Source: a virus
Lineage: Duplodnaviria > Heunggongvirae > Uroviricota > Caudoviricetes
Reading direction: 5' to 3' (one strand)
IMG/VR virus record: IMGVR_UViG_3300035701_007101
Length of the DNA: 64,000 bases
Of the stretch, positions 23,587-64,000 are shown one piece after another. The position numbers and the translations under genes were made by a program. Below the pieces are notes generated by a model. That model was not told the origin of the DNA and searched no databases. It saw only the letters and a program-made list of their open reading frames with translations. Each line of letters opens with the position of its first letter. Position 1 is the stretch's first letter.

Positions 23587-24753
23587 ATGAAAGCAATTTA
23601 TGCATTTTCGGGTGATCCAATAACATTTGGTCACATTGATATTATAGAAAGAGCTGCTAAGGTTTTTACAAAAGTGTTAGTTTGTATTGGCAGTAATCCA
23701 GATAAAAAGTATATGTTTACACTTGAACAAAGATTGCAAATGGCCCAAGATGCATTGTCGTCAATTAAAAATGTTGACGTCAAATCTTTTTCAGGATTGC
23801 TTGTTGACTTTGCTTTTGAGCAAAACATTTCAGTTATAATAAAAGGTGTTAGAAATACTACAGATTTTGAATATGAAAATACTCTTCATGCTGTAGGCGA
23901 AAGTCAAAAATTAGGTATTGAAACATTTATATTGTTTGCAAAACCACAATTGGCTCATGTTAGCTCTAGTACAGTTAAGTCAATTCAAAAAGAACATGGC
24001 TTTATTCATGAATATGTTACATTGAATGTTAAAGAAGCTTTAGAGAAGCAGATGTCAAAACAGCTTATTATTGGTGTGACTGGTGAAATTGCTGCTGGAA
24101 AATCGTATGTAACTGATGCATTAGTTAGTTTGCTGGATAAGTCAAAAATTGAAGCTCATAATATTGATTTAGATATTATTGCACATGAAATATTAGGTAG
24201 TTTAAAATTGCCTCAATATGTTGAAGTTAGACACAAAATATCTGCTAGATTTGGTGAAACCATTAAGGATCTTTATGATTCTATTAATAGAAAAAAATTA
24301 GGAGCAATAGTGTTTAAGGATTCAAATGCTCTTAAAGATTTAAATGACATAATGAGAGATTCAATACTTGTAAGAATTAAAAGAGAATTAAATAACAAAG
24401 AAGGCATTATCTTTTTGAATGCTGCTTTACTTGTAGAAGCAGGTATGACAGATTTATGTAATAATAATGTGATTTTAGTTAAGTGTGACAAAGTTGTTCA
24501 GAGATCACGTCTTTACAAACGAGGCCTTTCAACTGTTCAATTAAATAAACGATTAAAATCTCAATATTCTTATGATGAAAAGAAAGCAGTTCTTGCTGAG
24601 AGAATAAGAGAACATAACAAATATACAGGTAATATATTTATTGTAGATACTTCAAAAAATGACTCTGACATTATAAATACTGCTAAATTATTATCAAATT
24701 TGCAAAGCGGTGATTCTAAAGGATTGTGGAAAAACAAATTTTTGACTTTATAA
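23587..24753 (+). CDS. Bifunctional phosphopantetheine adenylyltransferase / dephospho-CoA kinase (CoaD-CoaE fusion)
   Basis: N-terminal 'KAIYAFSGDPITFGHIDIIERA' is the PPAT (CoaD) signature (GTFDPIT.GH..I.ERA). C-terminal half has the P-loop 'IIGVTGEIAAGKSYV' and 'NIDLDIIAHE' typical of DPCK (CoaE). Confidence 0.7.
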   Translation: MKAIYAFSGDPITFGHIDIIERAAKVFTKVLVCIGSNPDKKYMFTLEQRLQMAQDALSSIKNVDVKSFSGLLVDFAFEQNISVIIKGVRNTTDFEYENTLHAVGESQKLGIETFILFAKPQLAHVSSSTVKSIQKEHGFIHEYVTLNVKEALEKQMSKQLIIGVTGEIAAGKSYVTDALVSLLDKSKIEAHNIDLDIIAHEILGSLKLPQYVEVRHKISARFGETIKDLYDSINRKKLGAIVFKDSNALKDLNDIMRDSILVRIKRELNNKEGIIFLNAALLVEAGMTDLCNNNVILVKCDKVVQRSRLYKRGLSTVQLNKRLKSQYSYDEKKAVLAERIREHNKYTGNIFIVDTSKNDSDIINTAKLLSNLQSGDSKGLWKNKFLTL

Positions 24754-24824
24754 CCCTCTATAACTCAGTGGTAGAGTGGCGTTCTCTAAAAATGCTGTCA
24801 TCAGTTCAAATCTGATTAGAGGGA
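24754..24824 (+). tRNA. Suppressor tRNA, anticodon CUA (reads UAG amber)
   Basis: Manual cloverleaf fold. Acceptor CCCTCTA/TAGAGGG (7 bp), U8, D-stem ACTC/GAGT with loop AGTGGTA, anticodon stem GCGTT/AATGC, loop C-U-CUA-A-A (anticodon at 24786-24788), variable 4 nt, T-arm ATCAG-TTCAAAT-CTGAT, discriminator A. No encoded CCA. Confidence 0.8.
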
Positions 24825-24837
24825 TTGATAAATTATA

Positions 24838-24861
24838 AGAGGGATTAAAATCCCTCTTTTT
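24838..24861. terminator. Bidirectional terminator hairpin between the tRNA and the convergent minus-strand genes
   Basis: AGAGGGAT-taaa-ATCCCTCT perfect 8-bp stem followed by a T run. Confidence 0.55.
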
Positions 24862-25243
24862 ATGCAAAATTTAAGTGCTTAAAAATCTCGCCAGTATCAA
24901 TACATGCAATAGCTGTAACTTGATTATTCAAATCAGGTTCTTTAAATGACACATATATTTTTTTACGAGCAGCAAGTTTTGCTGCCCATAAATTTAAAAC
25001 TGATTCATTTCTTATACCAAGAAATATAAGATATGAATTATTCCATTTTTTATATGCTTCTAAATCACCTTTTAATGAATACTCGACAATAGCATGAGCA
25101 CCTTGCACGCACCGATACGTTTGATCTAGATCTTTACGCACCAATACATACATTCTCGGTTCTCGAATATTCATTAATCCAACTCCTAATAAGTTCTTGA
25201 TCAGGTTCGTTACCTTCTGCACATTTTGACTCAATTTGCTCAT
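24860..25243 (-). CDS. Putative peptidyl-tRNA hydrolase, PTH2 family (start uncertain; may be the internal Met near 25153)
   Basis: 'RMYVLVRKDLDQTYRCVQGAHAIVEY' resembles the Pth2 core 'KMVIVVRSDIKMGKGKIAAQVAHAA'. Length about 115 aa for the domain. Overlaps the upstream ORF if the first Met is used. Confidence 0.45.
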   Translation of the reverse strand: MSKLSQNVQKVTNLIKNLLGVGLMNIREPRMYVLVRKDLDQTYRCVQGAHAIVEYSLKGDLEAYKKWNNSYLIFLGIRNESVLNLWAAKLAARKKIYVSFKEPDLNNQVTAIACIDTGEIFKHLNFA

Positions 25244-31265: not shown

Positions 31266-32464
31266 TGTCAAAAAAACTATTAACAAATTTAAAGGAGAAG
31301 AGTATGTCACCGAAAACGATGGGTTTAACTGCTTTAGTTTCTATTGCATGTTTATTTTTTCTAATTTCATGTTTTAAATTGTTTGAAAATAATAATGCAA
31401 ATCAAATTATGTGTGTTCAAAGTCCTATACTTGGTAAATTAACATGGTACATTACTGCCGGCACTAAATGGCAAGGATTTGGAAAAATTACAAAATATGA
31501 TAAACGTTCTATTTATAATTTTTCATTACCAGTTAGATTTAATGATGCAGGACACGCCACTATGACTGGATCAGTTCAATTTGATATGTCATTATCTAAA
31601 GAACATCTTGATAAAGTACAATCTAAGTTTGGTACTGAAGAAGCTATAAAAACTCAATTGTTACAAACTGTAGTTAATAAGTGTTTGTATATGACTGGCC
31701 CAATGATGAGTAGTAAAGAATCGTATGCTGAAAAGAGAAGCTATCTAATTAATTATGTAGAAGATCAAATATCGAATGGCATTTTTAGGACTGCTATAAA
31801 AGATACTACAATTAAAGACCCTATTACAGGAGTAGATAAGATGGCTTCTTTAGTTGAAATTGTCACTGTAAACAAAATTCCTCAGCGTCAGGAAGAAGCT
31901 GTATTAAAAGAATTTGGAATTAGAGCATTTAACTTTTCTATTGAGAAATTAGATTATGACGAAACTGTTGAGAAACAAATACAGCAACAACAACAAATGA
32001 CAATGGCAGTACAGACGTCAATAGCTGATGCAAAGAGAGCAGAGCAAGCAGCTATTACTGCAGAAGCTAATGGAAAAGCAAATGCTGCTACTGCAAAATG
32101 GGAACAAGAAACTAATAAAGCTCGTGCTGTTACTATAGCTGAAAAAGATAGAGATAGTTGTAAATTAGTTATGGAAGCTGCAGCATTTAGGAAGCAAGCA
32201 AGTATATTGGAAGGCGAAGGAGAAGCTACTAAACGTCGATTGATATTACAGGCAGACGGTGCTTTATCCATTAAGCTCGACAAGTGGATTGAATCTCAAA
32301 AAGTATGGGCTGTAGCATTTGCAGCATATAAAGGTCAGATTGTTCCCACTACTGTCATGGGTGGAAATTTTAATGGTCAAAACGGTGCAACTACTTTTAT
32401 GGATATAATGGCTGCAAAAGCTGCTAAAGATTTATCTTTAGACATGAGTGTGCCAAATAAATAA
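31265..32464 (+). CDS. SPFH/band-7 (flotillin/HflC-like) membrane protein
   Basis: N-terminal TM segment, then Ala/Glu/Gln/Lys-rich coiled region 'AKRAEQAAITAEANGKANAATAKWEQETNKARAVTIAEKDRD...EGEGEATKRRLILQA' typical of the SPFH C-terminal region. Confidence 0.6.
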   Translation: MSKKLLTNLKEKSMSPKTMGLTALVSIACLFFLISCFKLFENNNANQIMCVQSPILGKLTWYITAGTKWQGFGKITKYDKRSIYNFSLPVRFNDAGHATMTGSVQFDMSLSKEHLDKVQSKFGTEEAIKTQLLQTVVNKCLYMTGPMMSSKESYAEKRSYLINYVEDQISNGIFRTAIKDTTIKDPITGVDKMASLVEIVTVNKIPQRQEEAVLKEFGIRAFNFSIEKLDYDETVEKQIQQQQQMTMAVQTSIADAKRAEQAAITAEANGKANAATAKWEQETNKARAVTIAEKDRDSCKLVMEAAAFRKQASILEGEGEATKRRLILQADGALSIKLDKWIESQKVWAVAFAAYKGQIVPTTVMGGNFNGQNGATTFMDIMAAKAAKDLSLDMSVPNK

Positions 32465-32538
32465 TTAATATTTGATAATGATAATGATAATTATGTTGTC
32501 TAAAACTAATTTTTCACAATTTTCAAAGGATTAAAACA

Positions 32539-32820
32539 ATGATGTCGATTTTTATTGGTAATCTTCCATTCTCATCAACTGAAGAATCTATTAAAAATCT
32601 CTTATCTACTTATAGCAATGTTATATCTATCAAAATAATTATTGATCGAGAAACAGGCAAATCGAAAGGTTTTGCTTTTGCTGAGGTTGATGATGGCGAT
32701 AAAGTGATTGCTAATCTTAATGGAACTGATTTTAATGGTCGAAAATTAGTAGTCAATCAAGCAAGACCAAAAGAAGATAAACCAAGAAATGACAATCGAA
32801 AACCGAATTATGTCAGGTGA
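32539..32820 (+). CDS. RRM-type RNA-binding protein
   Basis: RNP-2 'IFIGNL', RNP-1 'KGFAFAEV', 93 aa like bacterial Rbp proteins. Confidence 0.7.
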   Translation: MMSIFIGNLPFSSTEESIKNLLSTYSNVISIKIIIDRETGKSKGFAFAEVDDGDKVIANLNGTDFNGRKLVVNQARPKEDKPRNDNRKPNYVR

Positions 32821-32839
32821 CGCAAAACAAGTTATATAT
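32810..32839. repeat. 30-bp exact repeat copy A (ATGTCAGGTGACGCAAAACAAGTTATATAT)
   Basis: Identical 30-mer found again at 38673..38702. Here it spans the stop codon of the RRM gene. Confidence 0.7.
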
Positions 32840-33136
32840 TGAAAAGTAATAATTATTTTATAATTTCTAAAATAATACACGGTAGTGATTATCGGAAGTG
32901 CTCTTGGAGTTGTCTAGTTGTAAATAGAAACGTTGAAGAGAGAAGTTACTTTTGTAACGATCAATAGTAGAAATCGCTAGGACAATGAAGTTACATTAGA
33001 CACAAATGTAGCTTCATTATGTCATTATCATAGAATCACATCTGCTAAGCTATGATATGACGTAGATATTTCAAACATTCACAAATCATTGAAATTATTT
33101 CAATTGTTAAGGAGTTACATGTCAACGTAAAATATA

Positions 33137-34105
33137 TTGACTAAACTATTCATAAACTCATTTAAAAGGAGATTTATGGATAAAAGAAATTTCGTTGATT
33201 ACTCATTCGTTGACCCTATTCTTCTACAAAATCCTGAGATAACTTGGGCTGAATTTAATAAAATGTATTCAGTTAAAATGTCAGATGCTACATTTTACAA
33301 TAGGAAAAAATTTCTACTTAAAACGCTTGCAAATGAAGCTAATCCTTTAATTGATCAATCGCAAGACTTACTTACTCACTTTCACTTTCGACCTAATACT
33401 AAAACGTATGAATTAGTTAAAATGTTAATTGAGAAGCCTGAAGGCATTGATATTACTGCTGCTTCCGGTGCATTAAAGTTGAGTCAAAAGAACATTTGCG
33501 ACATTATTAGTCGTCTCAAGAATCGTAAACAAATGTCGATTGGTCATTCTGGCAATCTTATTTATATTAACAACACTAAATCAAAGCAACTAACAGTTGT
33601 CGAAAAGACTACGCAAGATCAATTATTGCCTAGCTCATTAGTGCCGGTTGAAAAGTTGCCGAGGCAGGGATCGTTAATGTATAAGATACTTGAATTATTA
33701 ATAGTTCATAAAGAGACGGGTATAAGTATTGATGAATTAAAGGGTCAATTAAAGGTCAAACGTACATCTATTTATTATCTTATTCATCACTTGAAGAAGA
33801 AAGGTATAAATATAAATTCAACACACGGTATTTATAAAATCAAAGTATCAAAAGCAATGGTGAAATCTCAGCAATTTGTTACAAAATCTGATGCATTGCA
33901 ATTTGTTACGAAATCTGATGCATTACCTTCACAAAACAAAATATTGTTGGAGCTTTCTAATTTAACAGATTCTGATTTGGGCGATGCACTTCAACACATA
34001 AAGTTGGCACGTTTTCATAGTGCTGTTTATCAAGCAATCATTGAATCAAACGCAATTGTAGTACGTTTAGAAAAAGAAATACAATCTGGACGTCAACTTA
34101 TATAA
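33137..34105 (+). CDS. Hypothetical protein with internal 27-bp tandem duplication (FVTKSDALQ x2)
   Basis: ORF. Direct repeat 'caatttgttacRaaatctgatgcattR' at 33872..33925. Confidence 0.45.
   Translation: MTKLFINSFKRRFMDKRNFVDYSFVDPILLQNPEITWAEFNKMYSVKMSDATFYNRKKFLLKTLANEANPLIDQSQDLLTHFHFRPNTKTYELVKMLIEKPEGIDITAASGALKLSQKNICDIISRLKNRKQMSIGHSGNLIYINNTKSKQLTVVEKTTQDQLLPSSLVPVEKLPRQGSLMYKILELLIVHKETGISIDELKGQLKVKRTSIYYLIHHLKKKGININSTHGIYKIKVSKAMVKSQQFVTKSDALQFVTKSDALPSQNKILLELSNLTDSDLGDALQHIKLARFHSAVYQAIIESNAIVVRLEKEIQSGRQLI
33872..33925. repeat. 27-bp tandem duplication inside ORF 33137..34105
   Basis: caatttgttacaaaatctgatgcattg / caatttgttacgaaatctgatgcatta. Confidence 0.6.
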
Positions 34106-34126
34106 AACCGTTGAAAGGAGCAGTTA

Positions 34127-34546
34127 ATGCAATCAATACAGTTGTTAACAGAAAATCAAAAACAAATTCAAGGTCTTTTGAAAGATCGCACGTATCTTCA
34201 TGCAAAAGAAATCGCTGAAGTTGTTGAAGTTCCTATAACAAGAGTATATTCGGCTATTAAGCAAATGAGGATAAGTGGCATTGGCGTGATGACTATCAAT
34301 AAAGGGTATGTGTTGTCGAACAAAGCTACAAAAAGAGACGACATTAATTTCACGCGACGGTTATATGGACGAAGAGCAAGCGATTTATTGGCTGTTATGG
34401 TCTGCAAAGATGATATTCAAAAGCGGTGGAACACTCCTCGCGATAGAGCAATGTTTCAGAAAATTACATCGCCATTACTTGTAAATTTGAGTAATTCAAA
34501 AGGTATGCAAGTTTTGTTGACTATTGAAAAGGAATTAAAAGACTAA
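34127..34546 (+). CDS. Hypothetical protein (possible HTH)
   Basis: 'LHAKEIAEVVEVPITRVYSAIKQMR' is HTH-like. RBS GGAG. Confidence 0.4.
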   Translation: MQSIQLLTENQKQIQGLLKDRTYLHAKEIAEVVEVPITRVYSAIKQMRISGIGVMTINKGYVLSNKATKRDDINFTRRLYGRRASDLLAVMVCKDDIQKRWNTPRDRAMFQKITSPLLVNLSNSKGMQVLLTIEKELKD

Positions 34547-35170
34547 ATGCCAAAAGTAAAAGTAAATGGCGAGATTTTTCTTGCTGCATGGCCAAAAGAA
34601 AGCGACAAAATAATTATAGCTGTTGCTAAAGCATATAAACGTGGTAAACTAATACAATGGCAATTAGCTGAATCTGAAGGTGCTCTCAATGGTGTTTTAA
34701 ATGTACCAATTAAAAAAATAAGATGTAGATACAATTTTTTGAGAGATAAAATAAAAATTTATGCTAAAAGAAGACTTCAAAAGCAAATCACTCGTGTAAG
34801 TAGTTATCACAATTTTAAAAGAAGATTAACTCTTCAATATGCTGCTGGTTACAATTCAAAAAGGACAAAATGGTTATTAAAAGATGAAATTTTACTATTA
34901 TGTCTTGCTAAAAAATATACAATAAATAACAGAATTAAATGGAAGCTTCTGGTTAATGATAAAAAAGTAAAAAAATTACCAACAAATAATATTAAATCAT
35001 TGTCACATACTTACAATAGATTTATTAATCTAGACGTTCATAGAAAGTCTGCTTTGAAATGGAAAAAGAAAAATCGACAAAGATTTAATGAGACTGTTCA
35101 AAAAAGATTAAAAAATAAAAGACAGCTTATACGACAATTTCTTTGGAATAAAATAGGAATAAGATCATAG
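34547..35170 (+). CDS. Highly basic (K/R-rich) hypothetical protein
   Basis: 207-aa ORF starting at the previous stop (TAAATG). Confidence 0.4.
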   Translation: MPKVKVNGEIFLAAWPKESDKIIIAVAKAYKRGKLIQWQLAESEGALNGVLNVPIKKIRCRYNFLRDKIKIYAKRRLQKQITRVSSYHNFKRRLTLQYAAGYNSKRTKWLLKDEILLLCLAKKYTINNRIKWKLLVNDKKVKKLPTNNIKSLSHTYNRFINLDVHRKSALKWKKKNRQRFNETVQKRLKNKRQLIRQFLWNKIGIRS

Positions 35171-35587
35171 TTTAAGAGTGATAGCAATTTATATAACTTT
35201 TGGATGATTTTATAGTAACCAATAGAAATTGCGTCGTAATCAAAACGTAATAATAGGAGTAAGATTTGTAAAATAAAGACTTTATTGCACAGATTAACTA
35301 AAAAGAAGTTAAAAAATGCAAAAAAAAACATCACAAAAACTTAACGTACAAAAACTTAAAGTAAAACTAATTAGTAACGAACTTGGGTGGTTTGTGTCGA
35401 TTGAACAATCTAAGTCTTTTTCATATTATTGGTACTCTTTTTTAATATGGTTAATGAGAACATTTATGAGATATGAAATTAAAATTGCCAAAATATGTAG
35501 AAACATTCATAACTTTCTTTACTGTGATCATAATGATATACGATAAATTAGTACTACAATTGTAGGTCGTTTTGAATAAGGAAAAAT

Positions 35588-38936: not shown

Positions 38937-39139
38937 TTCATGATTCAGAAAGATATGGTCTTGCTTCTGTTACTAATCAAGATAACGTTGAAATACGAAA
39001 AATGCCGTATGCAAGTCATAGTGTTCAAGTTTTAGTAAGCAAATAAATTACTACACTATATTTTTGAGAATATTGTAATACATTGAGAAAATTGATATAT
39101 ATTATACTTATAAGAAATATTGCTCTTTGGAATATAAAA

Positions 39140-39232
39140 AGAAGTGGTGCTTTAGTGAAGTTTCAGAAAATGTTCTAGGTGAACACCAAAACTGCTAATT
39201 TTGTATGACGGTTCAAATCCGTGTCTAACACT
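39140..39232 (+). pseudogene. tRNA-like fragment / degenerate tRNA (does not fold into a full cloverleaf by hand)
   Basis: Shares the 5' leader 'GAAGTGG(T/C)GCT' and 'TTCAGAAAAT' with the downstream tRNA. Has a T-arm-like 'ACGG-TTCAAAT-CCGT', but no acceptor partner was found for the 3' segment. Confidence 0.25.
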
Positions 39233-39296
39233 TTACTAGAATTTCATCCTTCTTTTAAATTTGAAAAAATGAAGTGGCGCTCAAGAATAGGACTTC

Positions 39297-39369
39297 AGAA
39301 AATTTGCTCAATTGGTAGAGCGAAAGATTTAGGATCTTTACGTTGTTGGTTCAAATCCGACATTTTCAT
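39297..39369 (+). tRNA. tRNA with anticodon UAG (Leu codon CUA/CUG by standard rules) but class-I (short variable arm) structure; A1-A72 mismatch
   Basis: Manual fold. Acceptor AGAAAAT/ATTTTCA (6 bp plus 1-72 mismatch), D-arm GCTC-AATTGGTA-GAGC, anticodon stem AAAGA/TCTTT with loop UU-UAG-GA, variable 5 nt, T-arm GTTGG-TTCAAAT-CCGAC. Confidence 0.5.
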
Positions 39370-39604
39370 CCAAACGTTTTATTCAATTTCGCCCTTCTTT
39401 TAATAAAAATTCTGTTGATACATGAGGTTAAACTCATGGTTTTAAAGGGTGCTGGTGAAAAGTCATGATTCCTCCTCGCCCTTTATTTTAAAGGTATAAA
39501 AATTATGAAAATGACAACGAACTTCACTTTTAATTGTAGCAGTTGCTTTAATAGTAGCAACTCAGTGAGGTTCATTTTCTAATTATTCCATTATAGAACA
39601 ACTA

Positions 39605-39643
39605 GAAAAAAGGGCCTCACCTAAAAAATGAGGCCCTTTTTTT
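39605..39643. terminator. Strong bidirectional terminator hairpin
   Basis: GGGCCTCA-cctaaaaaa-TGAGGCCC flanked by an A run 5' and a T run 3'. Confidence 0.55.
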
Positions 39644-40169
39644 ATTGAGAAAAACTATGAAAATGTATATTTTAAGGTATTTGTTTGATATGAATATTAA
39701 ACAATCTAAAAACTTTATTTTAAAGAAATCCCATACCTCAATTTGGAATTTTTTACTTGTAATTTCTAATTTAATGTTTTTATTAAAAACAACATTATCA
39801 CTAAATTCTTCCAATGACTTAGGGATAACAACAATAAATTCATTTAAATTTAAATTACAAGAAAACTATGTACTAAACGCATTTTTAATTTTACATATTT
39901 AAGATTCATAAAGTGAAGATTGTAATTTTTTAAAACTTTGAAATTGTATAAATGAATATGAGTTATGAATTAAAATTAAGTTTTGGTATGATGTGCAGGA
40001 AACAAAACTATTTGAGTTCTTTACAAGGATATGAGATTTTGTCGTGTTCAGAAATATTAAAACGTTATACTATTGTAAAACACGAAAATGATTATGATTT
40101 GGTAGACAATTTGGATTTGTTAGTTGAGTTTTTATATAAGAATATATTTTGAAAATTAGTGTAGTCGCC

Positions 40170-40241
40170 GCCGCCTTAGCTGAGATGGATTAGCGCAAGC
40201 CTGAAGAGCTTGAGAGCACAGTTCGATACTGTGAGACGGCA
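40170..40241 (+). tRNA. tRNA-Phe (anticodon GAA)
   Basis: Manual fold. Acceptor GCCGCCT/AGACGGC (one C-A mismatch), D-arm GCTG-AGATGGAT-TAGC, anticodon stem CAAGC/GCTTG with loop CU-GAA-GA, variable AGAG, T-arm CACAG-TTCGATA-CTGTG, discriminator A. Confidence 0.6.
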
Positions 40242-40252
40242 TTTGAAATCAT

Positions 40253-40327
40253 AGATAGGTACGCAAATTGGCACGCGGCAGGATTGTTACTCCTGTGATT
40301 TTGGGGGTTCGACTCCCTCCCTATCTG
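40253..40327 (+). tRNA. tRNA-Asn (anticodon GUU)
   Basis: Manual fold. Acceptor AGATAGG/CCTATCT (perfect), D-loop AATTGGCA, anticodon stem CAGGA/TCCTG with loop UU-GUU-AC, T-arm GGGGG-TTCGACT-CCCTC, discriminator G. Variable loop is 7 nt by this fold and needs a software check. Confidence 0.55.
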
Positions 40328-40488
40328 TTATTTTAATTATGGAGAAGTATAGGCAATGGATAATAATGCTTTTATAAATTTTCTAATGGAAAGTAGTCGG
40401 ATATTGGTTTGCCGAAGCTATCTGCTAAATAGTTGTTCAATAAAATGAACTGAAAGTTCAATTCTTTCACTTTCCGTTAGGAGATTTT

Positions 40489-41631
40489 ATGTATAAATGC
40501 AATGATTGTAAATTAGATTTTAAAAATCGATCACAATTAGCAAATCATTTTAGATGGAAACATAAACAATGTTTAATTTTCAAATGTAATAAATGCAACA
40601 AAGAAATAACAGATAAAAGCGGTTTGACGATTCATGAAAAATTTTGTACAGGTGTTAAAGAAAAGAAAAACAATATTTGTCCAAAATGTAACTTTACAAT
40701 TAAAACAAACTATAAGAAACATGTTGTTTCATGTAATGGGTTAGGTCCTCGTCGATTAAGAACAAAACATCGCGAGAGAGTTGTTTTAACAAAAGAAAAT
40801 ATTGAAATAATTAGAAAACAATATGATGATAATGTGCCATTAAAAATTATTAGACAGCAAAATAAGTTTTCAAAATTACAAGTTAGACATGCATTAAAAG
40901 GATATAAGAAGCGATCAAAGTCAGACGTTATTAAAAGAAGTCACAAAGAAGGTAGAATGTGCAGACTGCAATTTCACGAATCTTTTGCTGAAAAGTTTTT
41001 TAATGACTTTTTACAAAAATCAGGATATAAATTAGGATTGGATTATATTCGTGAATATAGAGTTTCTTATTATCGAATTGATTTCTTTTTTCAAAATTTG
41101 AATATAGCAATAGAAGTAGATGGATCACAACATTATACATATAATCATCAAATAGAAATTGATAAAAGAAAAGATCAATTATTGAATAATCTTGGTATTA
41201 AAGTAATAAGGTTACCTTGGAAAGTGGTTTGTAATGAGTCAAAAAATACATTAAATGAGGTACTAGATATTATTAAAAACAAAAATGTTGATGAATTTAA
41301 TAATAAACAGAAAATTAAATTAGCAGATTTATTAAAAAAACGAAAAGAAACAAAGAAAAAGCAAAAACAAAGAAAGAAAAATTTGCCAAAAAAATACATT
41401 GAAAAATTAATAATTGCATTAAATAAATGCATTGTATATAAAACATATATGAAGCGCATGAATGATTTAAACAATGTTGATTTAAAAAAATGGGGAACTA
41501 TTTCTGAGCTTTCAAATTTATGGAATGTTTCTCATACTCAGGTTAGACGATATATTGAAAAACATTGTTTGTTAGAAAAATCAAAGACGGTGTGGCAGAG
41601 TTGGTACATGCTACGGTCTGCAAAACCGTAA
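40489..41631 (+). CDS. C2H2 zinc-finger + DUF559/Vsr-like (PD-(D/E)xK) endonuclease-domain protein; candidate tRNA-associated homing-type endonuclease
   Basis: Three C2H2-like fingers ('YKCNDCKLDFKNRSQLANHFRWKH','FKCNKCNKEITDKSGLTIHEKFC','CPKCNF...HVVSC'). 'YRIDFFFQNLNIAIEVDGSQH...LGIKVIRLPW' matches the DUF559 pattern. The 3' end overlaps tRNA-Cys by 46 nt. Confidence 0.5.
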   Translation: MYKCNDCKLDFKNRSQLANHFRWKHKQCLIFKCNKCNKEITDKSGLTIHEKFCTGVKEKKNNICPKCNFTIKTNYKKHVVSCNGLGPRRLRTKHRERVVLTKENIEIIRKQYDDNVPLKIIRQQNKFSKLQVRHALKGYKKRSKSDVIKRSHKEGRMCRLQFHESFAEKFFNDFLQKSGYKLGLDYIREYRVSYYRIDFFFQNLNIAIEVDGSQHYTYNHQIEIDKRKDQLLNNLGIKVIRLPWKVVCNESKNTLNEVLDIIKNKNVDEFNNKQKIKLADLLKKRKETKKKQKQRKKNLPKKYIEKLIIALNKCIVYKTYMKRMNDLNNVDLKKWGTISELSNLWNVSHTQVRRYIEKHCLLEKSKTVWQSWYMLRSAKP

Positions 41632-41658
41632 ACGTCGGTTCAAATCCGATCACCGTCT
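41586..41658 (+). tRNA. tRNA-Cys (anticodon GCA)
   Basis: Manual fold. Acceptor GACGGTG/CACCGTC perfect, D-loop with GG, anticodon stem ACGGT/ACCGT with loop CU-GCA-AA, T-arm GTCGG-TTCAAAT-CCGAT, discriminator U (Cys identity element). Confidence 0.7.
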
Positions 41659-58073: not shown

Positions 58074-61000
58074 TTATTCGTTTGCCATTTCATCATATTT
58101 GGCTAATTTCTCCTTTTGCTCGGGAGTTCTTTCATATAAATTGCCAACACAACAAATATCTAACAAATCTATAAATATTCTGCCCATATATTCGCTAGCA
58201 ACAGCTTCACCAACTAAAATATTATCAACTTTGATAACTTCTTGAACTTTGACTTTTGCATATTTTCCAGTTTCTTGTTTTAAAAGAAAAGCGCTTGAGC
58301 ATCTTCTATTATAACAGGGTATTCTAACTTTGACCATGTTAAATTTTGAATCAGTTAATGTCACATAATAATAACTATTATTAGCTTTACTTGTTTTTTC
58401 AACAATCTCAGAAGCTACTCCCCAAACAGTAGCTTTCATATTTACTTTTGGTTGTGTAAAATTTGTTAACATGACAGCTTTTAATTTTGCAACTTCTCTT
58501 TTTTGACTATCAGATAATTTTGTTCGCCAATCTAAAGCATAAGCATCAATAAACTGTTCATGTTCATATTTTGTATCATTATAATCAACATCTCGTTCCC
58601 ACTTTTTCTCTTTTCTTATTTCTTTGTAATATTTTTCTAATATCTCATTTTGAGTGCCAAATGCATCAAATGCATGACCGCTAATTAAAGCTATCATAGC
58701 TGTTTTTGTTATTTTCTTTATTTGTGATGTTTTCTCGCAAAAATCTTCAAATGAATCAAATGGCTGTGACTGTAAAATATTATTTATAACTGCAGGTCCT
58801 ACATGATTTATATGGCCTAAGCCAAACATAATACTTTTTTCTTCACCATATATTGAAAAACCTTCTTTAGCTCTGCTAATATTTGCAGGAACAATACTTA
58901 TGCCATGACTTATGATCTCTGCAAAATAACTTGTAAACTTTTCCTTCAATGAATTTGACAACAATACTACATAAAACTCCAAAGCATAATATTCTTTAAA
59001 CCACATCATCTGGTAACTTAGAACAGTGTATGCTACTGCATGCGAGCGGTTGAATCCGTAGCGTGCAAATGCGACGCAACTTTGCCACAAAATTTCAGCA
59101 GAAGTTTCAATTAAGTCACCGACGCTTATACAGCCCTTAATAAATTTATCATGAATTTCTTTTCGTTGTTTAGCTTCTTTATCTTTTGCATCAGTGTCTC
59201 GTATTGATTTCATTAAATTTTTTCTAACTGTATCAGTCAAATCTAATGGAAATCCTGCAACCATGTGACACAATCTCATTACATCTTCTTGATAAACTAA
59301 AATACCATAACTTGATTTCAAACATTTTTCAACTAATTTTGATTCGTAATTGAATTCTTTACCATTTTTTCTTTGTGCATATTCATGATGCATTCCCATA
59401 TCTAACGGTCCGGGGCGACCTAGCGCTGTTGCTGTCGTTATGTCAGAAAACGTTGTAGGTTTTATTTCTTTCAATAAAGCTTTCATTAAGTTGCTATTAT
59501 GAACTACAAATCCATTAGCTATATAATTATGATTTATAGCTTCAGGATCAAAACCAATATCATAAACTTCTTTTGTACCAACAAATTGAATGGCTTTAAT
59601 TGGCACATATATATACCTGAACATGTGTCTTGCAAATCGTTTATATATTTTAACTTTAACTTTACCCTTTTTCCATACACGTCTAAGAATATAATCTTTC
59701 TTATAAGTTTTTATTGGTCTAAATTTTGACAACAATTGAGGTCTACATGTTCTTTGACCACTTCTAATGCAACTTGCGCAATTTTCAGCTATACCTTGCA
59801 CATCTACTGATCTATTGTAAAATGCACAATAATGTTGACATCTGAACCGCTCTTGATCAATTAATATTTTGTCATCAACTTTTAATTCTTCTAATCTTTT
59901 CCAACCGCGAGGTGTATAAAATTCATGTAGTAATGCAGTTTCAATACATCTATCGTTATCATATTGAACTGTAACTCTGTAAACATCTCGTACTTGTTTT
60001 TTCATAGCAAATATTTTTTGTCTAATTTTCATTTTTCTAGTTGACGGATTTAAATTAACACAGCTAACTTTGTGTATTGACTTTTTATTTTTTTCAAACA
60101 TATCATATAAGTTTTTGATTCTATATGAGCCAACCCATGAATTGCCGTCAATACATTCAAATTGAAAAATACCATTTGTATCAGTTTGTCTAAATTTTGA
60201 ATAAATTGTGTTATTGCCATCTAACGGCAATTTTGATGAAAATTCTTCATAAAATAATGATGTTATTTGCTTATGTTCAATAGATCGTAAATCAAAATCT
60301 GCTTTATCATTATACGATTTTGTTGATCTAATAATGTCAAGTATTTCTTTTATAATAGATAATGTTTTTAGACCAAGAATATCAAATTTAATGAATCCTG
60401 AAGATTGTAAATCTTTTCGAATGATGCCATCAACCCAGCTTGTTATAAGCTCATTTTTATGTCTCATTAAAGGTATTGTTTCATCAATTTTTGTCGGCGT
60501 TGCAACTACACCTGCGGGATGTTTTGTAAGATGTCTTAATTGGCCTTTTAGTTTGAATAAGATCTCTCTTATTTGAGGATGTCGTCCAAGATATTGTTTT
60601 ATATCATATAGATCCTGTCTAAAGCCATCTTGACCAGATTCAATCATTAAAGTTGCGTCAAACACTTCTTCAGACATTTCATCAACATCATCAGCAAGAT
60701 TTTTAACAACATCATTAGTGTCTTGAATATCAATATCAAATATTCTAGCAATATCTCTTAAAACCATTTTCATTTTCATTTGACCGTAAGAGCCAATAGG
60801 AGCTACATGGTCATTGCCATATTTGTCAATAAAATATTTAATGACAAGTTCTCTTTCATTCATACTAAAATCACTATCAATGTCAGGAAATGAAGATTGC
60901 TTTTTGATTTTTAGAACGATGTTGTTTTTGATTGGATCTGTAGACGATATGTTTAAAAGATAATACATTAAAGAACCGTGCGTTTTAACTTTTACTTTAT

Positions 61001-61160
61001 TTTTAATGAGGCTAATTATGTAGTCTTGTAAATTTTGAACATTGACATTTGTTAATTCTCTTTCAAGTGCTTGAATATATTTATCATTTTCATGTAATGA
61101 TAGTTCTTTTAATTTTTTCTCACACAAATATTGAATAAAATCAATTTTTTTTATATCCAT
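58074..61160 (-). CDS. dnaE: DNA polymerase III alpha (DnaE) C-terminal part: palm, fingers, OB; carries an in-frame mini-intein; begins with a 90-aa non-DnaE leader
   Basis: 'FPDIDSDFS' (catalytic Asp pair, vs E. coli PDFDVDFC), 'KFDILGLKTL', 'ALGRPGPLDMGMHHEYAQRKNG', 'GFNRSHAVAYTVLSYQMMWFKEYYALEFY' (vs [27 protein letters not shown]). The intein interrupts between 'FQFE' and 'SNLMKALL'. Confidence 0.8.
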   Translation of the reverse strand: MDIKKIDFIQYLCEKKLKELSLHENDKYIQALERELTNVNVQNLQDYIISLIKNKVKVKTHGSLMYYLLNISSTDPIKNNIVLKIKKQSSFPDIDSDFSMNERELVIKYFIDKYGNDHVAPIGSYGQMKMKMVLRDIARIFDIDIQDTNDVVKNLADDVDEMSEEVFDATLMIESGQDGFRQDLYDIKQYLGRHPQIREILFKLKGQLRHLTKHPAGVVATPTKIDETIPLMRHKNELITSWVDGIIRKDLQSSGFIKFDILGLKTLSIIKEILDIIRSTKSYNDKADFDLRSIEHKQITSLFYEEFSSKLPLDGNNTIYSKFRQTDTNGIFQFECIDGNSWVGSYRIKNLYDMFEKNKKSIHKVSCVNLNPSTRKMKIRQKIFAMKKQVRDVYRVTVQYDNDRCIETALLHEFYTPRGWKRLEELKVDDKILIDQERFRCQHYCAFYNRSVDVQGIAENCASCIRSGQRTCRPQLLSKFRPIKTYKKDYILRRVWKKGKVKVKIYKRFARHMFRYIYVPIKAIQFVGTKEVYDIGFDPEAINHNYIANGFVVHNSNLMKALLKEIKPTTFSDITTATALGRPGPLDMGMHHEYAQRKNGKEFNYESKLVEKCLKSSYGILVYQEDVMRLCHMVAGFPLDLTDTVRKNLMKSIRDTDAKDKEAKQRKEIHDKFIKGCISVGDLIETSAEILWQSCVAFARYGFNRSHAVAYTVLSYQMMWFKEYYALEFYVVLLSNSLKEKFTSYFAEIISHGISIVPANISRAKEGFSIYGEEKSIMFGLGHINHVGPAVINNILQSQPFDSFEDFCEKTSQIKKITKTAMIALISGHAFDAFGTQNEILEKYYKEIRKEKKWERDVDYNDTKYEHEQFIDAYALDWRTKLSDSQKREVAKLKAVMLTNFTQPKVNMKATVWGVASEIVEKTSKANNSYYYVTLTDSKFNMVKVRIPCYNRRCSSAFLLKQETGKYAKVKVQEVIKVDNILVGEAVASEYMGRIFIDLLDICCVGNLYERTPEQKEKLAKYDEMANE
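59496..60155 (-). mobile_element. Mini-intein (220 aa) inside DnaE, with Cys-rich insertion; no LAGLIDADG/HNH motif seen
   Basis: Begins 'CIDGNSWV' (block A, Cys1). Ends 'VYDIGFDPEAINHNYIANGFVVHN' followed by Ser+1 (canonical blocks F/G). The flanking sequences re-join to a conserved DnaE stretch (FQFE|SNLMKALLKEI... equivalent to E. coli FQLES-RGMKDLIKRL). Confidence 0.7.
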
Positions 61161-61532: not shown

Positions 61533-62162
61533 TTACCTCGTAGCTAAAGAGCAAATGTTCTCTTTAGAAATATCAACGTCTATTTGCTTACTTTGAATAG
61601 TAAGTTTTGCAATTGCTTTATCTTTTATAGATACAAACAATTCATTTCCCTTTAATTCAACTGATAATTGTTCATGTAATTTATCGACATCAATATTTTG
61701 TCGTAACATCCATGAAGGTGAAAACGGATCACTATGACGAAATCTTGGTACTTGAAAAGACGGTCTTCCAAATGTACCTGTTACACCTGATAAACCTGTA
61801 ACACCTGATAAACCTGTAACACCCTGTATACCCATATATCCTACAAGTTCAGCAGGCGCACCTACAAATTCAGTGCCAGTTGCACCACCAATAAGCCCGT
61901 TAGTTACCATGTGTCCGTTAGATGAAAGTGCAACACTTTGAACTCGTCTTTCAAAAAGAGTATCACGGGAAAGACATTCTTGACTTATTTGTTCATTTTC
62001 TATTTCATCGTTACAAAGTAAATTAAATTTTTCAAAAGATTTTTTACTAACAATATCTACTTTGTCAACAACTATATCGTCTACTCTATTATAGCTTCTA
62101 AAAAATAATTTTTTCTTAACTAAATCTAACCCATTAATTGCTAAAAATTTTTCATTTGACAT
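61533..62162 (-). CDS. Collagen-like (Gly-X-Y x8) repeat protein
   Basis: 'GIQGVTGLSGVTGLSGVTGTFGRP'. Underlying 18-bp tandem DNA repeat at 61772..61832. Confidence 0.45.
   Translation of the reverse strand: MSNEKFLAINGLDLVKKKLFFRSYNRVDDIVVDKVDIVSKKSFEKFNLLCNDEIENEQISQECLSRDTLFERRVQSVALSSNGHMVTNGLIGGATGTEFVGAPAELVGYMGIQGVTGLSGVTGLSGVTGTFGRPSFQVPRFRHSDPFSPSWMLRQNIDVDKLHEQLSVELKGNELFVSIKDKAIAKLTIQSKQIDVDISKENICSLATR
61772..61832. repeat. 18-bp tandem repeat (cctgataaacctgtaaca x2 plus partial copies) encoding the Gly-X-Y tract
   Basis: Direct adjacent repeats read from the plus strand. Confidence 0.6.
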
Positions 62163-62923
62163 TTTAGCTTCTTTATAGTTCTTTCATAGTCCTCAAATCT
62201 AATTTTTGCTATTTTTGATCGATCACTTGTCCTGACTACAATACCTTCTGGTTTTCCACCCTCTCCGTCAATAGGTGCATTTGTCTTACCGGGAAGCATA
62301 GTTTTTAACCAAGCAAATGTCTCTATTAAATCTTTAGGCGGACAATATGACTCTAATCTTGGAACTATTGGTATATCGACTTTTCTTGCTATATCTTGAA
62401 ATTGCTGTTCATTAAGAAATTTTTGATGACCATGATCACGAAGAAAAGAAATTGACTGAATTGAATTATTCACTAAAAAACTATCAAAATCATATTCAGA
62501 ATCATAATAAGCGACATCGAATAATCTAAAACCAGGTGCACGACAACTTGTATAATTTTTAGCGTTATTAATATTCAATCCATATACTTCACCAAAAAAT
62601 ATCCATACATAACTTGTTAAATTTATATCATTGAACTTTGACATTAATGGTCTTAAAGTATCTACTATGCCCATTGATGGATTGTAAATTAAATCACCAC
62701 TAGCAGTAAGTAGTTCTTCCCTTGAGCCTATAAAATAAGACTTATCATAAAATAGAATGATCCTTGCATTAGTGCCATCAATCTTCTCTGTAAGAATTAC
62801 TGGATCATTAAATTCAACTTGAACATTATTTACTAAACTACCTTTATCACCAAGTTCATGATAAGTAAGAATTGAAGGATATTTTGCTGCTGAATTTAAT
62901 TTGTCTAAATTTGTCTTAATCAT
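62141..62923 (-). CDS. ATP-dependent RNA ligase (Rnl2-like nucleotidyltransferase)
   Basis: Motif I 'VILTEKIDGTNARII' (KxDGxN, cf. T4 Rnl2 EKIHGTNF), motif IV-like 'FFGEVYG', motif V-like 'KPEGIVVRT', Lys motif 'KIAKIRFEDY'. Confidence 0.55.
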   Translation of the reverse strand: MIKTNLDKLNSAAKYPSILTYHELGDKGSLVNNVQVEFNDPVILTEKIDGTNARIILFYDKSYFIGSREELLTASGDLIYNPSMGIVDTLRPLMSKFNDINLTSYVWIFFGEVYGLNINNAKNYTSCRAPGFRLFDVAYYDSEYDFDSFLVNNSIQSISFLRDHGHQKFLNEQQFQDIARKVDIPIVPRLESYCPPKDLIETFAWLKTMLPGKTNAPIDGEGGKPEGIVVRTSDRSKIAKIRFEDYERTIKKLKCQMKNF

Positions 62924-63000: not shown

Positions 63001-64000
63001 TTATTCATTATCCAACCTAATGAGTCTATTATTATACCATTCTTCAAATTCATTTTCTATATATAATTCGTTCTTATCTTCTATTTCTTTAATCTCACCA
63101 ACAGATAAGTCATATACAGCCATACTTCTTGACATACTCAAAAATCTCTCAAATAACAAATCATGCTTTAATGGATCTATATTTGTAATATCCATTAAGT
63201 AACATGCAAGAGAACCTGCGCTCGACCCACGTGCTGGGCCTACAAGCACACCATGTTCTTTGGCCCATTTAATATAATCAGCTACAATTAAAAAATAATC
63301 AGACATTTCTGTGCGCCTGATAACACTTAATTCATATTTTATTCTTTTTGTATATTGACTATTTTCTTCATACCAATGATCTTCAGCTTTTCTATCCCAT
63401 CCATCTCTAGTCAACTGAACTAAATAATCGTAACTGCTCAAATCACCAGTATCAATTTTTGGTAATTTTTCTTTAGTATCCCAGTCCCAAGAATCAATTT
63501 TTTTAGCTACTTTTATTGTATTATCAAGAGCCACTTGAAAGTCTTCAAGGCTTAAGTATTTATAATGACCTTGATCTATATATGCATCAATCATTTGATG
63601 TCTGTCTTTAAACCAGAAGTCTTTAGTTGAAAACTCCCAAACTCTTTTAAATTTTTTCTTTCCAGTAACAATGTCTAAAATTTCATTAAAAGTAATTCCG
63701 TCATCTTTATCTCTTAATGGTTTAAACTTTTTAAATCTATCTAACTCAATAAAACTATTGTAAGTTTTACGTATATGATTTGGATCAACATCATTTCCAA
63801 TTGCATCTAAAATTTCACCCATTGCATGCAATCTTTCTTTATCTTTCATTGTAACTTGTTCACCATCATCTTTAGAACCCAACATTAGTGATATTTCTTG
63901 AGCTTTAGAATCAAGTTTATCTAAATAATGAACGTCGTTTGTTACAATGAAATTAATGTTTAATTCTTTAGCAATCTCAACTAATATCTTATTTACATAT
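63001..64000 (-). CDS. dnaE: DnaE N-terminal part (PHP domain to start of palm), 5' partial (ORF continues beyond window end); ends with a 40-aa non-DnaE tail
   Basis: '[54 protein letters not shown]' vs E. coli '[59 protein letters not shown]'. Own translation upstream of 63885 shows '[10 protein letters not shown]' (PHP) with no stop to nt 64000. Confidence 0.75.
   Translation of the reverse strand, partial: [332 protein letters not shown]

Follow-up and report, generated by a model that had tools for sequence, protein, structure and literature searches.

Our study of a 64,000-nt stretch of viral DNA (IMG/VR record IMGVR_UViG_3300035701_007101, class Caudoviricetes; hereafter the window) revealed a probable codon-sensing transcription attenuator within a cluster of transfer RNA (tRNA) genes at positions 39140–41658. 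We estimate a probability of roughly 0.75 that this attenuator, together with its leader open reading frame (ORF), controls a tRNA operon that contains a resident nuclease gene and carries two tRNA-like units at its head. The initial annotation of the interval, made from the sequence alone, described a tRNA island and did not notice the leader ORF and terminator at 39505–39643. This codon-panel attenuator, whose function is predicted computationally, is what we regard as the main interest of the interval, and it appears to be widespread in related huge phages.

A codon-matched leader precedes the tRNA genes

The leader ORF lies on the plus strand at 39505–39582, between tRNA(UAG) and tRNA-Phe, and consists of 25 codons (MKMTTNFTFNCSSCFNSSNSVRFIF) followed by a stop codon. 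Fifteen of the 24 codons after the start specify Phe, Asn, Ser (as AGY) or Cys, compared to a fraction of 0.17 expected from the genome (p=5.9e-7), and four of the five Ser codons are AGY. The codons of this panel are those of the four downstream tRNAs, which have the anticodons GAA, GUU, GCU and GCA.

The alternative pairings of the plus-strand transcript were computed directly. Segment 1 (ACUUCACU, 39521–39528, codons Asn-Phe-Thr) pairs with segment 2 if the leader is untranslated, and an inner hairpin (AGUUGCU/AGCAACU, 39541–39562) spans the codons S-C-F-N-S-S-N. Segment 2 (AGUGAGGUUC, 39564–39573), the 5′ strand of the antiterminator, is situated inside the ORF and would be masked by a terminating ribosome, because the stop codon is only 6 nt downstream. 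Segment 3 (GGGCCUCAC, 39612–39620) pairs either with segment 2, as the antiterminator, or with segment 4 (UGAGGCCC, 39629–39636, with a U7 tract to 39643). The latter pairing produces an intrinsic terminator at 39612–39643, which is formed by a GC-rich hairpin (GGGCCUCA / UGAGGCCC) and the U7 tract. The minimum free energy fold of 39505–39645 (−43.6 kcal/mol) contained both the 1:2 and 3:4 pairings, and an RNA ending before segment 4 adopted an extended 2:3 helix (−26.8 kcal/mol). The Rfam Thr_leader model also matched here, although weakly (34.9 bits, E=6e-4).

The element therefore combines a codon-enriched short ORF, an intrinsic terminator and, by structure prediction, a mutually exclusive antiterminator, as expected of a ribosome-mediated attenuator. 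It departs from the classical members in that the genes behind it are tRNA-Phe, tRNA-Asn, tRNA-Ser, tRNA-Cys and a nuclease, rather than biosynthesis or synthetase genes, and these tRNA-gene targets are the point of novelty.

In the trp, his and phe attenuators, stalling on the regulatory codons leads to read-through and fast decoding leads to termination. In the mechanism proposed here, the operon would begin with two tandem tRNA-like RNAs held in conserved leader-trailer helices, followed by the attenuator. Fast decoding of the panel codons would carry the ribosome to the stop codon and cover segment 2, upon which the 3:4 terminator would form and transcription would end before the tRNA genes. 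Were the matching charged tRNAs scarce, whether from a host pool too small for the codon usage or from depletion of host tRNAs, the ribosome would stall on the Phe/Asn/Ser/Cys run and leave segment 2 free. Segment 2 would then pair with segment 3, allowing read-through into tRNA-Phe, tRNA-Asn, tRNA-Ser, the nuclease gene and tRNA-Cys. The outcome would be an on-demand, self-limiting supply that is restricted to the missing tRNAs.

The codon match is conserved and general

The leader ORF is conserved in four other lineages. At three related loci (loci are denoted by L numbers), a leader with this layout stands ahead of the same set of tRNAs, namely L008 (MKNYTKTCNNNMFSSFCFNSKNELVEFA), L013 (MIFTSRNFSNSNNTCSFCFNSKNEKVGST) and L079 (MTSLTCNSNYFTSSFSNYGKTDQWGFA). 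All three keep the peptide core C-x-x-C-F-N-S / CNSNYFTSSFSNY, and a counterpart of the inner hairpin (GUUUUUGC/GCAAAAAC) is found at the same place in L008 and L013. Segments 2, 3 and 4 covary, with GUGAGG in the window, GGUGGAG in L008 and L022, and GGUGGGG in L013, and L079 has its own complementarity between segment 2 and the terminator. In the strain variant L020, 18 nt of the leader are deleted in frame, which removes the inner hairpin.

Further leaders were sought at about 70 related phage loci using structure only and no codon criterion; the detector required a terminator, preceded by a sequence complementary to its 5′ arm, and a small ORF whose end falls at that complement, no more than 800 nt upstream of a tRNA. 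This yielded 31 candidate leader ORFs and 27 distinct terminators. The leader of L065 reads QQPQPQQPR and is followed by tRNAs for Pro, Gln, Pro, Pro, Arg and Gln; that of L073 (QNPQQPQVDVDQDPD) is followed by three tRNA-Asp and three tRNA-Gln, and that of L060 (TNTATVATTTTAPVGGRPVR) by tRNAs for Pro, Ala, Thr, Gly and Val. In L022, a 41-codon leader stands ahead of 15 tRNAs, representing up to about 14 tRNA species. A similar arrangement is seen in the published 735-kb phage LR756501, which has a Leu-rich leader (MNNILHINLLNSLCLLGIKLIG) preceding five tRNA-Leu genes (p=5e-4).

The enrichment of each leader for codons cognate to its own array gave a sum z of 88. Permuting the arrays among the leaders reduced this to 5.9±7.7, with a maximum of 41, and none of 20,000 permutations reached 88. 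Shifting the reading frame by +1 or +2 gave sum z values of −17 and −3.6, and 1,226 control small ORFs from the neighbourhood of these arrays had a mean z of −0.01. On the basis of the permutation, frame-shift and control-ORF tests, we rejected the possibility that the match reflects merely the composition of AT-rich small ORFs. The Fisher combined p for leader codon enrichment was 1.6e-40. The match extends to synonymous codons, as 129 of the 193 informative codons were cognate compared to 89.5 expected (z=6.2), which suggests that particular isoacceptors are sensed, rather than amino acids. Where a genome has two leaders, each fits its own sub-array (L072, z=9.7 for its own and −0.9 when swapped; likewise L039).

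Of the terminators lying within 200 nt upstream of a tRNA, 44 % had an antiterminator segment of 7 nt or more, compared to 4 % of shuffled upstream regions and 6 % of other terminators. In the examples read, the complement to the terminator 5′ arm lies 1–17 nt before the stop codon, and in most lineages the terminator ends 12–37 nt from the first tRNA.

The leader regions of two other lineages had no match among GenBank phages, and no cultured phage emerged as a model. A full-text literature search found no description of attenuators of this kind, with incomplete coverage that leaves an earlier description possible, and a term search of the paper on phage LR756501 found no mention of attenuation, leader peptides or terminators. 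In the broader interpretation, a phage would gauge which codons cannot be decoded and turn on the matching tRNAs, with the shortfall arising through a codon-usage mismatch or a host tRNA-cleaving defence. That such codon-panel attenuators are both general and undescribed in the tRNA arrays of huge phages with a probable Bacteroidota host and, in addition, that the RNAs closed by AG(U)GG/CCCU stems at the operon head form a new Y-RNA-like class is a joint claim to which we would give slightly less than even odds.

The tRNA genes of the island

ARAGORN identified five real tRNAs in the interval, all on the plus strand, of which four were also found by Rfam. The initial annotation had folded five tRNA-type sequences by hand; four of these (UAG, Phe, Asn and Cys) were supported by both programs where it had placed them and the fifth, a partial copy, is also a real element, but a sixth element, tRNA-Ser(GCU), had been overlooked. 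The tRNA-like gene tRNA(UAG) lies at 39297–39372 (56 bits). tRNA-Phe(GAA) at 40170–40241 (49.8 bits, with a C5·A68 mismatch) and tRNA-Asn(GUU) at 40252–40328 (48.9 bits) are as closely spaced as originally reported, with 10–11 nt between them. The class II tRNA-Ser(GCU) at 40387–40477, which stands directly before the nuclease ORF, displayed six compensatory pairs across four lineages, and tRNA-Cys(GCA) occupies 41586–41658/9 (63.6 bits).

The earlier statement that none of these tRNAs encodes CCA does not hold, as tRNA(UAG) ends in AUUUUCA-U-CCA; the Phe, Asn, Ser and Cys tRNAs lack it. In the orthologues of L008, L011 and L013 CCA is encoded, and the comparison suggests that it was lost from tRNA-Phe, tRNA-Asn and tRNA-Cys of the window and kept only in the stem-flanked tRNA(UAG).

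Three observations concern the history of individual tRNA genes. The window tRNA-Phe (40170–40241) matches that of T5-like phages of Salmonella and Escherichia at 89 % identity over 54 nt and is unlike the tRNA-Phe of L008 and L013, which suggests gene replacement or exchange between unrelated phages. In L008 the anticodon loop of a tRNA-Asn(GUU) (9543–9812) is split by a group I intron at 9570–9771 (Rfam Intron_gpI, 55.2 bits, E=1.3e-13), and a tRNA-Asn of L079 (6268–6535) is interrupted likewise. L013 has a tRNA at 5071–5170 (Rfam, 45.2 bits) with a hairpin of about 27 nt inserted in its anticodon loop, which ARAGORN did not call.

Stem-flanked tRNA-like RNAs at the operon head

Two tandem tRNA-like units precede the attenuator on the plus strand. 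Unit 1 (39137–39256; fold −29.3 kcal/mol, z=−3.05) is closed by helix P1 (39137–39149 with 39245–39256) and helix P2 (39151–39161 with 39230–39240), and its core is made up of a D-like arm, a T arm and, between them, an arm resembling that of an anticodon (loop CUGCUAA), and lacks both an acceptor 3′ strand and CCA. It was called neither by ARAGORN nor by any Rfam model, so that by model it is neither a tRNA nor a YrlA RNA. Unit 2 (39271–39397; −34.4 kcal/mol, z=−2.81) consists of leader-trailer helices around tRNA(UAG), with a proximal helix pairing GAAG-U-GGCG (39271–39279) with CGCC-CUUC (39390–39397) and a distal helix pairing GAAUAGGAC (39285–39293) with GUUUUAUUC (39376–39384).

Both units share a two-part leader-trailer helix with the proximal pairing of GAAG-U-GGYG and CRYC-CUUC, and their distal helices differ in sequence yet keep the pairing. 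Compensatory differences separate GGUG/CAUC in unit 1 from GGCG/CGCC in unit 2, and the counterpart in L079, the closest relative of the whole island, is GAGCAAGAC/GUUUUGUUC. The same flanks (NNAG-U-GG ... ACUUC, a core, then CCCUNN) recur in L079, L059 (three tandem units) and L013 (one unit), and the distal flank pairs covary as GA:UC, AA:UU, UA:UA and UC:GA in four lineages. Some of the enclosed cores are complete cloverleaves with odd ends, namely A1·A72/U73 in the window, C1·A72/U73 in L059 and G1·U72/A73 in L079; others are permuted and YrlA-like, scoring 31.9 bits in L059 and 28 bits in L013 against a gathering score of 69. A pattern scan of the collection gave a single unrelated tRNA-like match, in L006, with a poor acceptor stem.

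The initial annotation had read unit 1 as a partial copy of tRNA(UAG) that shares its 5′ leader and has decayed. The duplication is real, in tandem at 39137–39256, and extends to the trailer; decay is doubtful, because both copies keep long compensated leader-trailer helices and the same flanks occur in three other phages. tRNA(UAG) had likewise been described as an aberrant tRNA for Leu codons with a class I body and an A1–A72 mismatch. Both features are present (cmscan flags the mismatch), along with a 5-nt variable loop, U73, G37 and the encoded CCA. Class-I-size tRNA-Leu genes (74–77 nt, 4–6 nt variable loop, A73) are common in phage arrays (L029, L030, L041, L043, L049, L058, L059, L022 and L072), and L029 has three such isoacceptors, UAG, AAG and CAA.

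Such genes lend weight to the alternative that tRNA(UAG) truly decodes Leu codons, as a tRNA-Leu whose variable arm has been shortened, and that unit 1 is a dead copy of it, since tRNA-Leu(UAG) genes of 74–77 nt occur in at least nine other lineages and the window gene has G37, a good cloverleaf at 56 bits and an encoded CCA. However, the short-arm tRNA-Leu(UAG) genes of other arrays have A73 and mostly Leu-type D arms, whereas tRNA(UAG) lacks the long variable arm of bacterial tRNA-Leu and has U73, A1·A72 and a generic D arm (GCUCAAUUGGUAGAGC). The orthologous stem-flanked unit of L079 has the anticodon AUU and a shifted acceptor end, and we know of no standard bacterial tRNA-Asn with A34, as in this anticodon. 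In addition, the same flanking helix surrounds YrlA-like, non-decoding cores in L059 and L013, and the leader peptide contains no Leu codons. We consider the Leu decoder rather unlikely. The membership of tRNA(UAG) in a conserved stem-flanked family, and the different anticodon of its L079 orthologue, make an ordinary Leu decoder doubtful, and it is probably not one. By sequence and predicted structure, tRNA(UAG) and the partial copy are members of a conserved family of tRNA-like RNAs with an AG(U)GG/CCCU helix, some of which are YrlA-like. That tRNA(UAG) is a module of a Y-RNA-like family is the account that we prefer, tentatively and at a little under an even chance.

Among the 18 larger window ORFs scanned, none has a TROVE domain. 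At L078 (Rhizobium phage RHph_TM61, MN988561), a TROVE (Ro60) gene is located from 16255 onward, directly after an array of 19 tRNAs with two homing-endonuclease genes, and RtcB genes flank the islands of L008 and L079. These neighbours suggest that RNA-repair and Y-RNA functions cluster with phage tRNA arrays.

A zinc-finger/DUF559 nuclease resident among the tRNAs

The nuclease ORF (40489–41631, plus strand; 380 aa) has AGGAG 7 nt before its ATG, and the last 46 nt lie within tRNA-Cys, exactly the overlap first reported. Its C2H2 zinc-finger and DUF559 composition was also borne out (Pfam zf-C2H2, 3.3e-7; DUF559, 4.7e-10, 39.7 bits against a cut-off of 20.6), and no GIY-YIG domain was matched in Pfam. 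The protein comprises tandem C2H2 fingers (aa 2–81, two to three fingers), an HTH-like middle, a DUF559/Vsr-like core (aa 164–262) and a conserved C-terminal HTH. In the Protein Data Bank (PDB), the fingers match ZNF568, PRDM9 and CTCF (E about 3e-11) and the nuclease matches 3hrl; the family profile matches this DUF559 structure at 3.6e-8 and I-Bth0305I (3r3p) at 0.004. Invariant residues of the alignment include E209, D211, H215, D225 and K228.

A single-sequence query gave no close match in viral contigs, and relatives were found with an alignment-based query. They lie inside phage tRNA arrays at 48 of 50 viral loci and in all eight metagenome contexts; their position and strand vary, and in some cases there are two or three of them. 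The RHph_TM61 homologue carries a homing-endonuclease annotation, with 1 nt between its end and tRNA-Met, and L011 has a decayed second copy. In the window, L011, L008, L013 and L079, the gene stays in one slot, between tRNA-Ser(GCU) and tRNA-Cys, with 46–77 % protein identity, and in L013 a gene for an Rnl1-type RNA ligase has been added to it.

The initial annotation took the overlap with tRNA-Cys as the pattern of a homing-type endonuclease that had inserted next to tRNA genes. The type is supported at family level, but a recent insertion is not. A gene end that overlaps or abuts the next tRNA recurs across the family (overlap of 46 nt in the window, 45 in L079, 10 and 7 in L025, 2 in L011, 0 in L008 and −1 in RHph_TM61) and is therefore no mark of insertion; no strain without the ORF was found, the strain variants being identical here, and the conserved position in five lineages indicates a resident gene. 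The nuclease would thus be a resident homing-type DNA endonuclease, presumably active and mobile, from a family specialized for phage tRNA arrays. The proposed operon would place its gene on one transcript with the tRNAs. Cutting of this transcript by RNase P at tRNA-Cys would take away the stop codon of the nuclease and might so limit its expression.

Promoter-like motifs

A 17-nt motif, GTTCTTTGACATATTGG, was found 11–18 nt upstream of tRNA 5′ ends in many lineages (23 matches; e.g. L036, L037, L038, L050 and L056). The window has weak versions at 39121, 39932 and 40143, of which the first (CTCTTTGGAATAT, 39121–39133, plus strand) is just upstream of unit 1 and the latter two precede the spacer ORF and tRNA-Phe; L079 has CTCTTTGAAAGTATTG at the position equivalent to 39121. 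The motif is probably a phage-specific promoter or processing signal inside tRNA arrays. It was rejected as a canonical TAnnTTTG box, as its position 2 is T. A sequence that does fit this Bacteroidota −7 box, TAAATTTG, lies at 39256–39263 on the plus strand, about 7 nt before unit 2, where it could act as a promoter. Across the candidate set, TAnnTTTG occurs within 120 nt upstream of 12 of the 27 leaders, compared to 7.7 % in shuffles. The leader may be transcribed through unit 2.

Alternative explanations

Several points weigh against attenuation as the control of these tRNAs, or limit how far it can be extended. The direction of regulation is proposed by likeness to the trp, his and phe attenuators. 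In the window, about 530 nt separate the terminator from tRNA-Phe, compared to 12–160 nt in relatives, and this spacer includes a 66-aa ORF (39952–40152, plus strand) without a match in Pfam or PHROG. In the stretch from tRNA(UAG) to the start codon of the leader, no canonical promoter was identified. In about one-third of lineages, the GTTCTTTGACATATTGG motif lies between the terminator and the first tRNA, where it may be an internal promoter. Given the long spacer and this possible internal promoter, the attenuator may not be the only, or even the main, control of the tRNAs of the window. Several candidate leaders showed no enrichment (e.g. L037 and L056 leader 2). Nor is the attenuator universal, as in the cultured Rhizobium phage RHph_TM61 the small ORFs of the tRNA array are ordinary ones and codon-matched leaders are absent. 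The antiterminator complement was itself a selection criterion of the detector, so that only the codon match and the shuffle controls count as independent evidence. Furthermore, every locus was sampled via the nuclease family, and the counts therefore do not give the prevalence of attenuators among phage tRNA arrays.

The interval could instead be a plain island of tRNA genes that includes an aberrant tRNA-Leu, its decaying duplicate and a homing endonuclease recently inserted at tRNA-Cys, in which the small ORF is incidental and the terminator merely ends the tRNA(UAG) unit. Compatible with this account are the reality of the tRNAs, of the duplicate and of the nuclease domains, the symmetry of the terminator (A6...T7), which a simple scan placed on the minus strand, and the patchy distribution of the nuclease family, which leaves remnants. 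However, the leader ORF, terminator and codon match are kept in L008 and L013, both of which lack the upstream tRNA(UAG), and the codon-to-tRNA statistics disfavour coincidence. In five lineages the slot of the nuclease is unchanged, no empty site was found, and the flanking helices of units 1 and 2 are conserved among phages. We therefore regard a plain island as very unlikely. It is also quite unlikely, though conceivable, that the leader senses decoding with an output other than termination, such as precursor processing or stability, or Rho access, the hairpin then being a processing or stability element. The codon match ties only the translation of the leader to the tRNAs, and both the internal promoter-like motifs 3′ of many terminators and the long spacer before tRNA-Phe in the window would fit such an output. 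Against this, the GC-rich hairpin with U7 is a canonical intrinsic terminator, and the complement to its arm is positioned to be covered by a terminating ribosome and shows a 10-fold enrichment over shuffles that is confined to terminators ahead of tRNAs. Transcription attenuation remains the reading that we favour.

Genome context and host

The window has a G+C content of 30 % and reads well in the standard code (code 11). Alternative codes with recoded TAG or TGA gave no clear gain for the window, despite the presence of an amber-suppressor tRNA. Its replication and RNA-repair genes are typical of huge phages and include a DnaB-like helicase, NAD-dependent ligase, trigger factor, intein-containing Pol III alpha, RecA, RNA ligase and PolX. 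Identical or near-identical DNA was found in the 262-kb JGI contig Ga0373628_0000021 and several Logan contigs, and a similar gene order is seen in a 416-kb phage contig. The only DNA-level phage match near the island was to an NMNAT-like gene of LR756501, with no tRNAs nearby. The tRNA island is probably a single plus-strand operon of a huge AT-rich phage that infects Bacteroidota, this host being likely because TAnnTTTG −7 boxes are frequent upstream of related leaders.

Elsewhere in the window, the amber-suppressor tRNA (24754–24824, anticodon CUA, labelled tRNA-Pyl by ARAGORN) lies directly 3′ of the stop of a gene with CTP_transf_like and CoaE domains (23587–24753) and is followed by a terminator at about 24840–24865; suppressor tRNAs (CUA, UUA) also occur in the arrays of L067, L071 and L079. 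A 2,975-bp segment at 32208–35182, which contains three ORFs, one of them for an HTH_11 protein, is shared by the window and L004 and absent from the strain variants L002 and L003, and may be an indel or mobile cassette. The DNA polymerase III alpha gene is split on the minus strand into pieces at 58074–61160 and 63001–63885, with three ORFs between them, including an RNA ligase (62141–62923), and the larger piece has an intein-like insertion (Intein_splicing, 1.3e-7, under the Pfam cut-off). At 6473–10624, a 1,383-aa protein contains about nine immunoglobulin-like domains (Ig_3, E=1e-96).

Significance

Phage tRNA arrays are usually discussed as an aid to codon usage or as a counter to tRNA-targeting defence, and to our knowledge essentially nothing is known of how their expression is controlled. 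If the attenuator functions as proposed, leader codons that mirror the tRNAs would constitute a direct sensor of decoding capacity and provide a self-limiting, isoacceptor-specific supply of tRNAs, extending classical attenuation from metabolism to the translation machinery and to viruses. The leader sequence could also be used to predict which tRNAs share one regulatory unit and to check doubtful tRNA calls, and such leaders could serve as compact parts in synthetic circuits designed to read out whether chosen tRNAs are available. The nuclease family offers a natural zinc-finger nuclease layout with eukaryote-like C2H2 fingers, and would represent a second, independent nuclease lineage in the niche of SegB. 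The stem-closed tRNA-like RNA family may connect phage tRNA operons with Y-RNA biology.

Comparison with known systems

YrlA and other bacterial Y RNA-like RNAs (Rfam RF02553; PMC4201824) have paired ends that form a conserved bulged helix around a tRNA-like module, and in phages they occur near tRNA and RNA-repair genes. The flanks found in the window enclose, in L059 and L013, cores that match the YrlA model, whereas window positions 39100–39420 gave no match to RF02553 at E≤10. The window cores are in normal tRNA arm order, unit 2 being a complete cloverleaf with CCA, and YrlA is permuted, with the T arm followed by a closed acceptor and then the D arm. The AG(U)GG/CCCU helix of the units may correspond to the bulged end helix of YrlA, which is the protein-binding module.

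For the nuclease, I-Bth0305I, an intron-encoded member of the ‘EDxHD’ Vsr-like homing endonuclease family (PMC3239194; PDB 3r3p), is likewise phage-encoded and has a Vsr-like catalytic domain with separate DNA-binding modules. The window nuclease differs in that it is free-standing and has an N-terminal array of classical C2H2 fingers, and the sequence similarity is weak. SegB of T4/T6 is a free-standing GIY-YIG homing endonuclease in a tRNA cluster, where it causes tRNA genes to be inherited preferentially and drives their segmental amplification (PMC2330249; PMC13096335). Both SegB and the window nuclease are free-standing genes among phage tRNA genes, with a strong tRNA association at family level, but the latter has a Vsr-like/DUF559 fold with C2H2 fingers and HTH modules, rather than GIY-YIG, and keeps its position in five lineages. 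SegB is the closest functional precedent and a plausible model for both the nuclease and the tandem duplication of the units.

The attenuator itself is closest to the leader-peptide attenuators trpL, hisL, pheL, thrL, leuL and ilv, and to pheM of pheST. It shares with them a codon-enriched short ORF, the 1:2, 2:3 and 3:4 pairings, a terminator just downstream and a stop codon placed such that a terminating ribosome masks segment 2. It differs in that viral tRNA genes, rather than biosynthetic or synthetase genes, would be controlled, and in that a multi-amino-acid panel of codons mirrors the downstream tRNAs down to the synonymous choice. Furthermore, several leaders are possible per genome, each fitted to its own sub-array.

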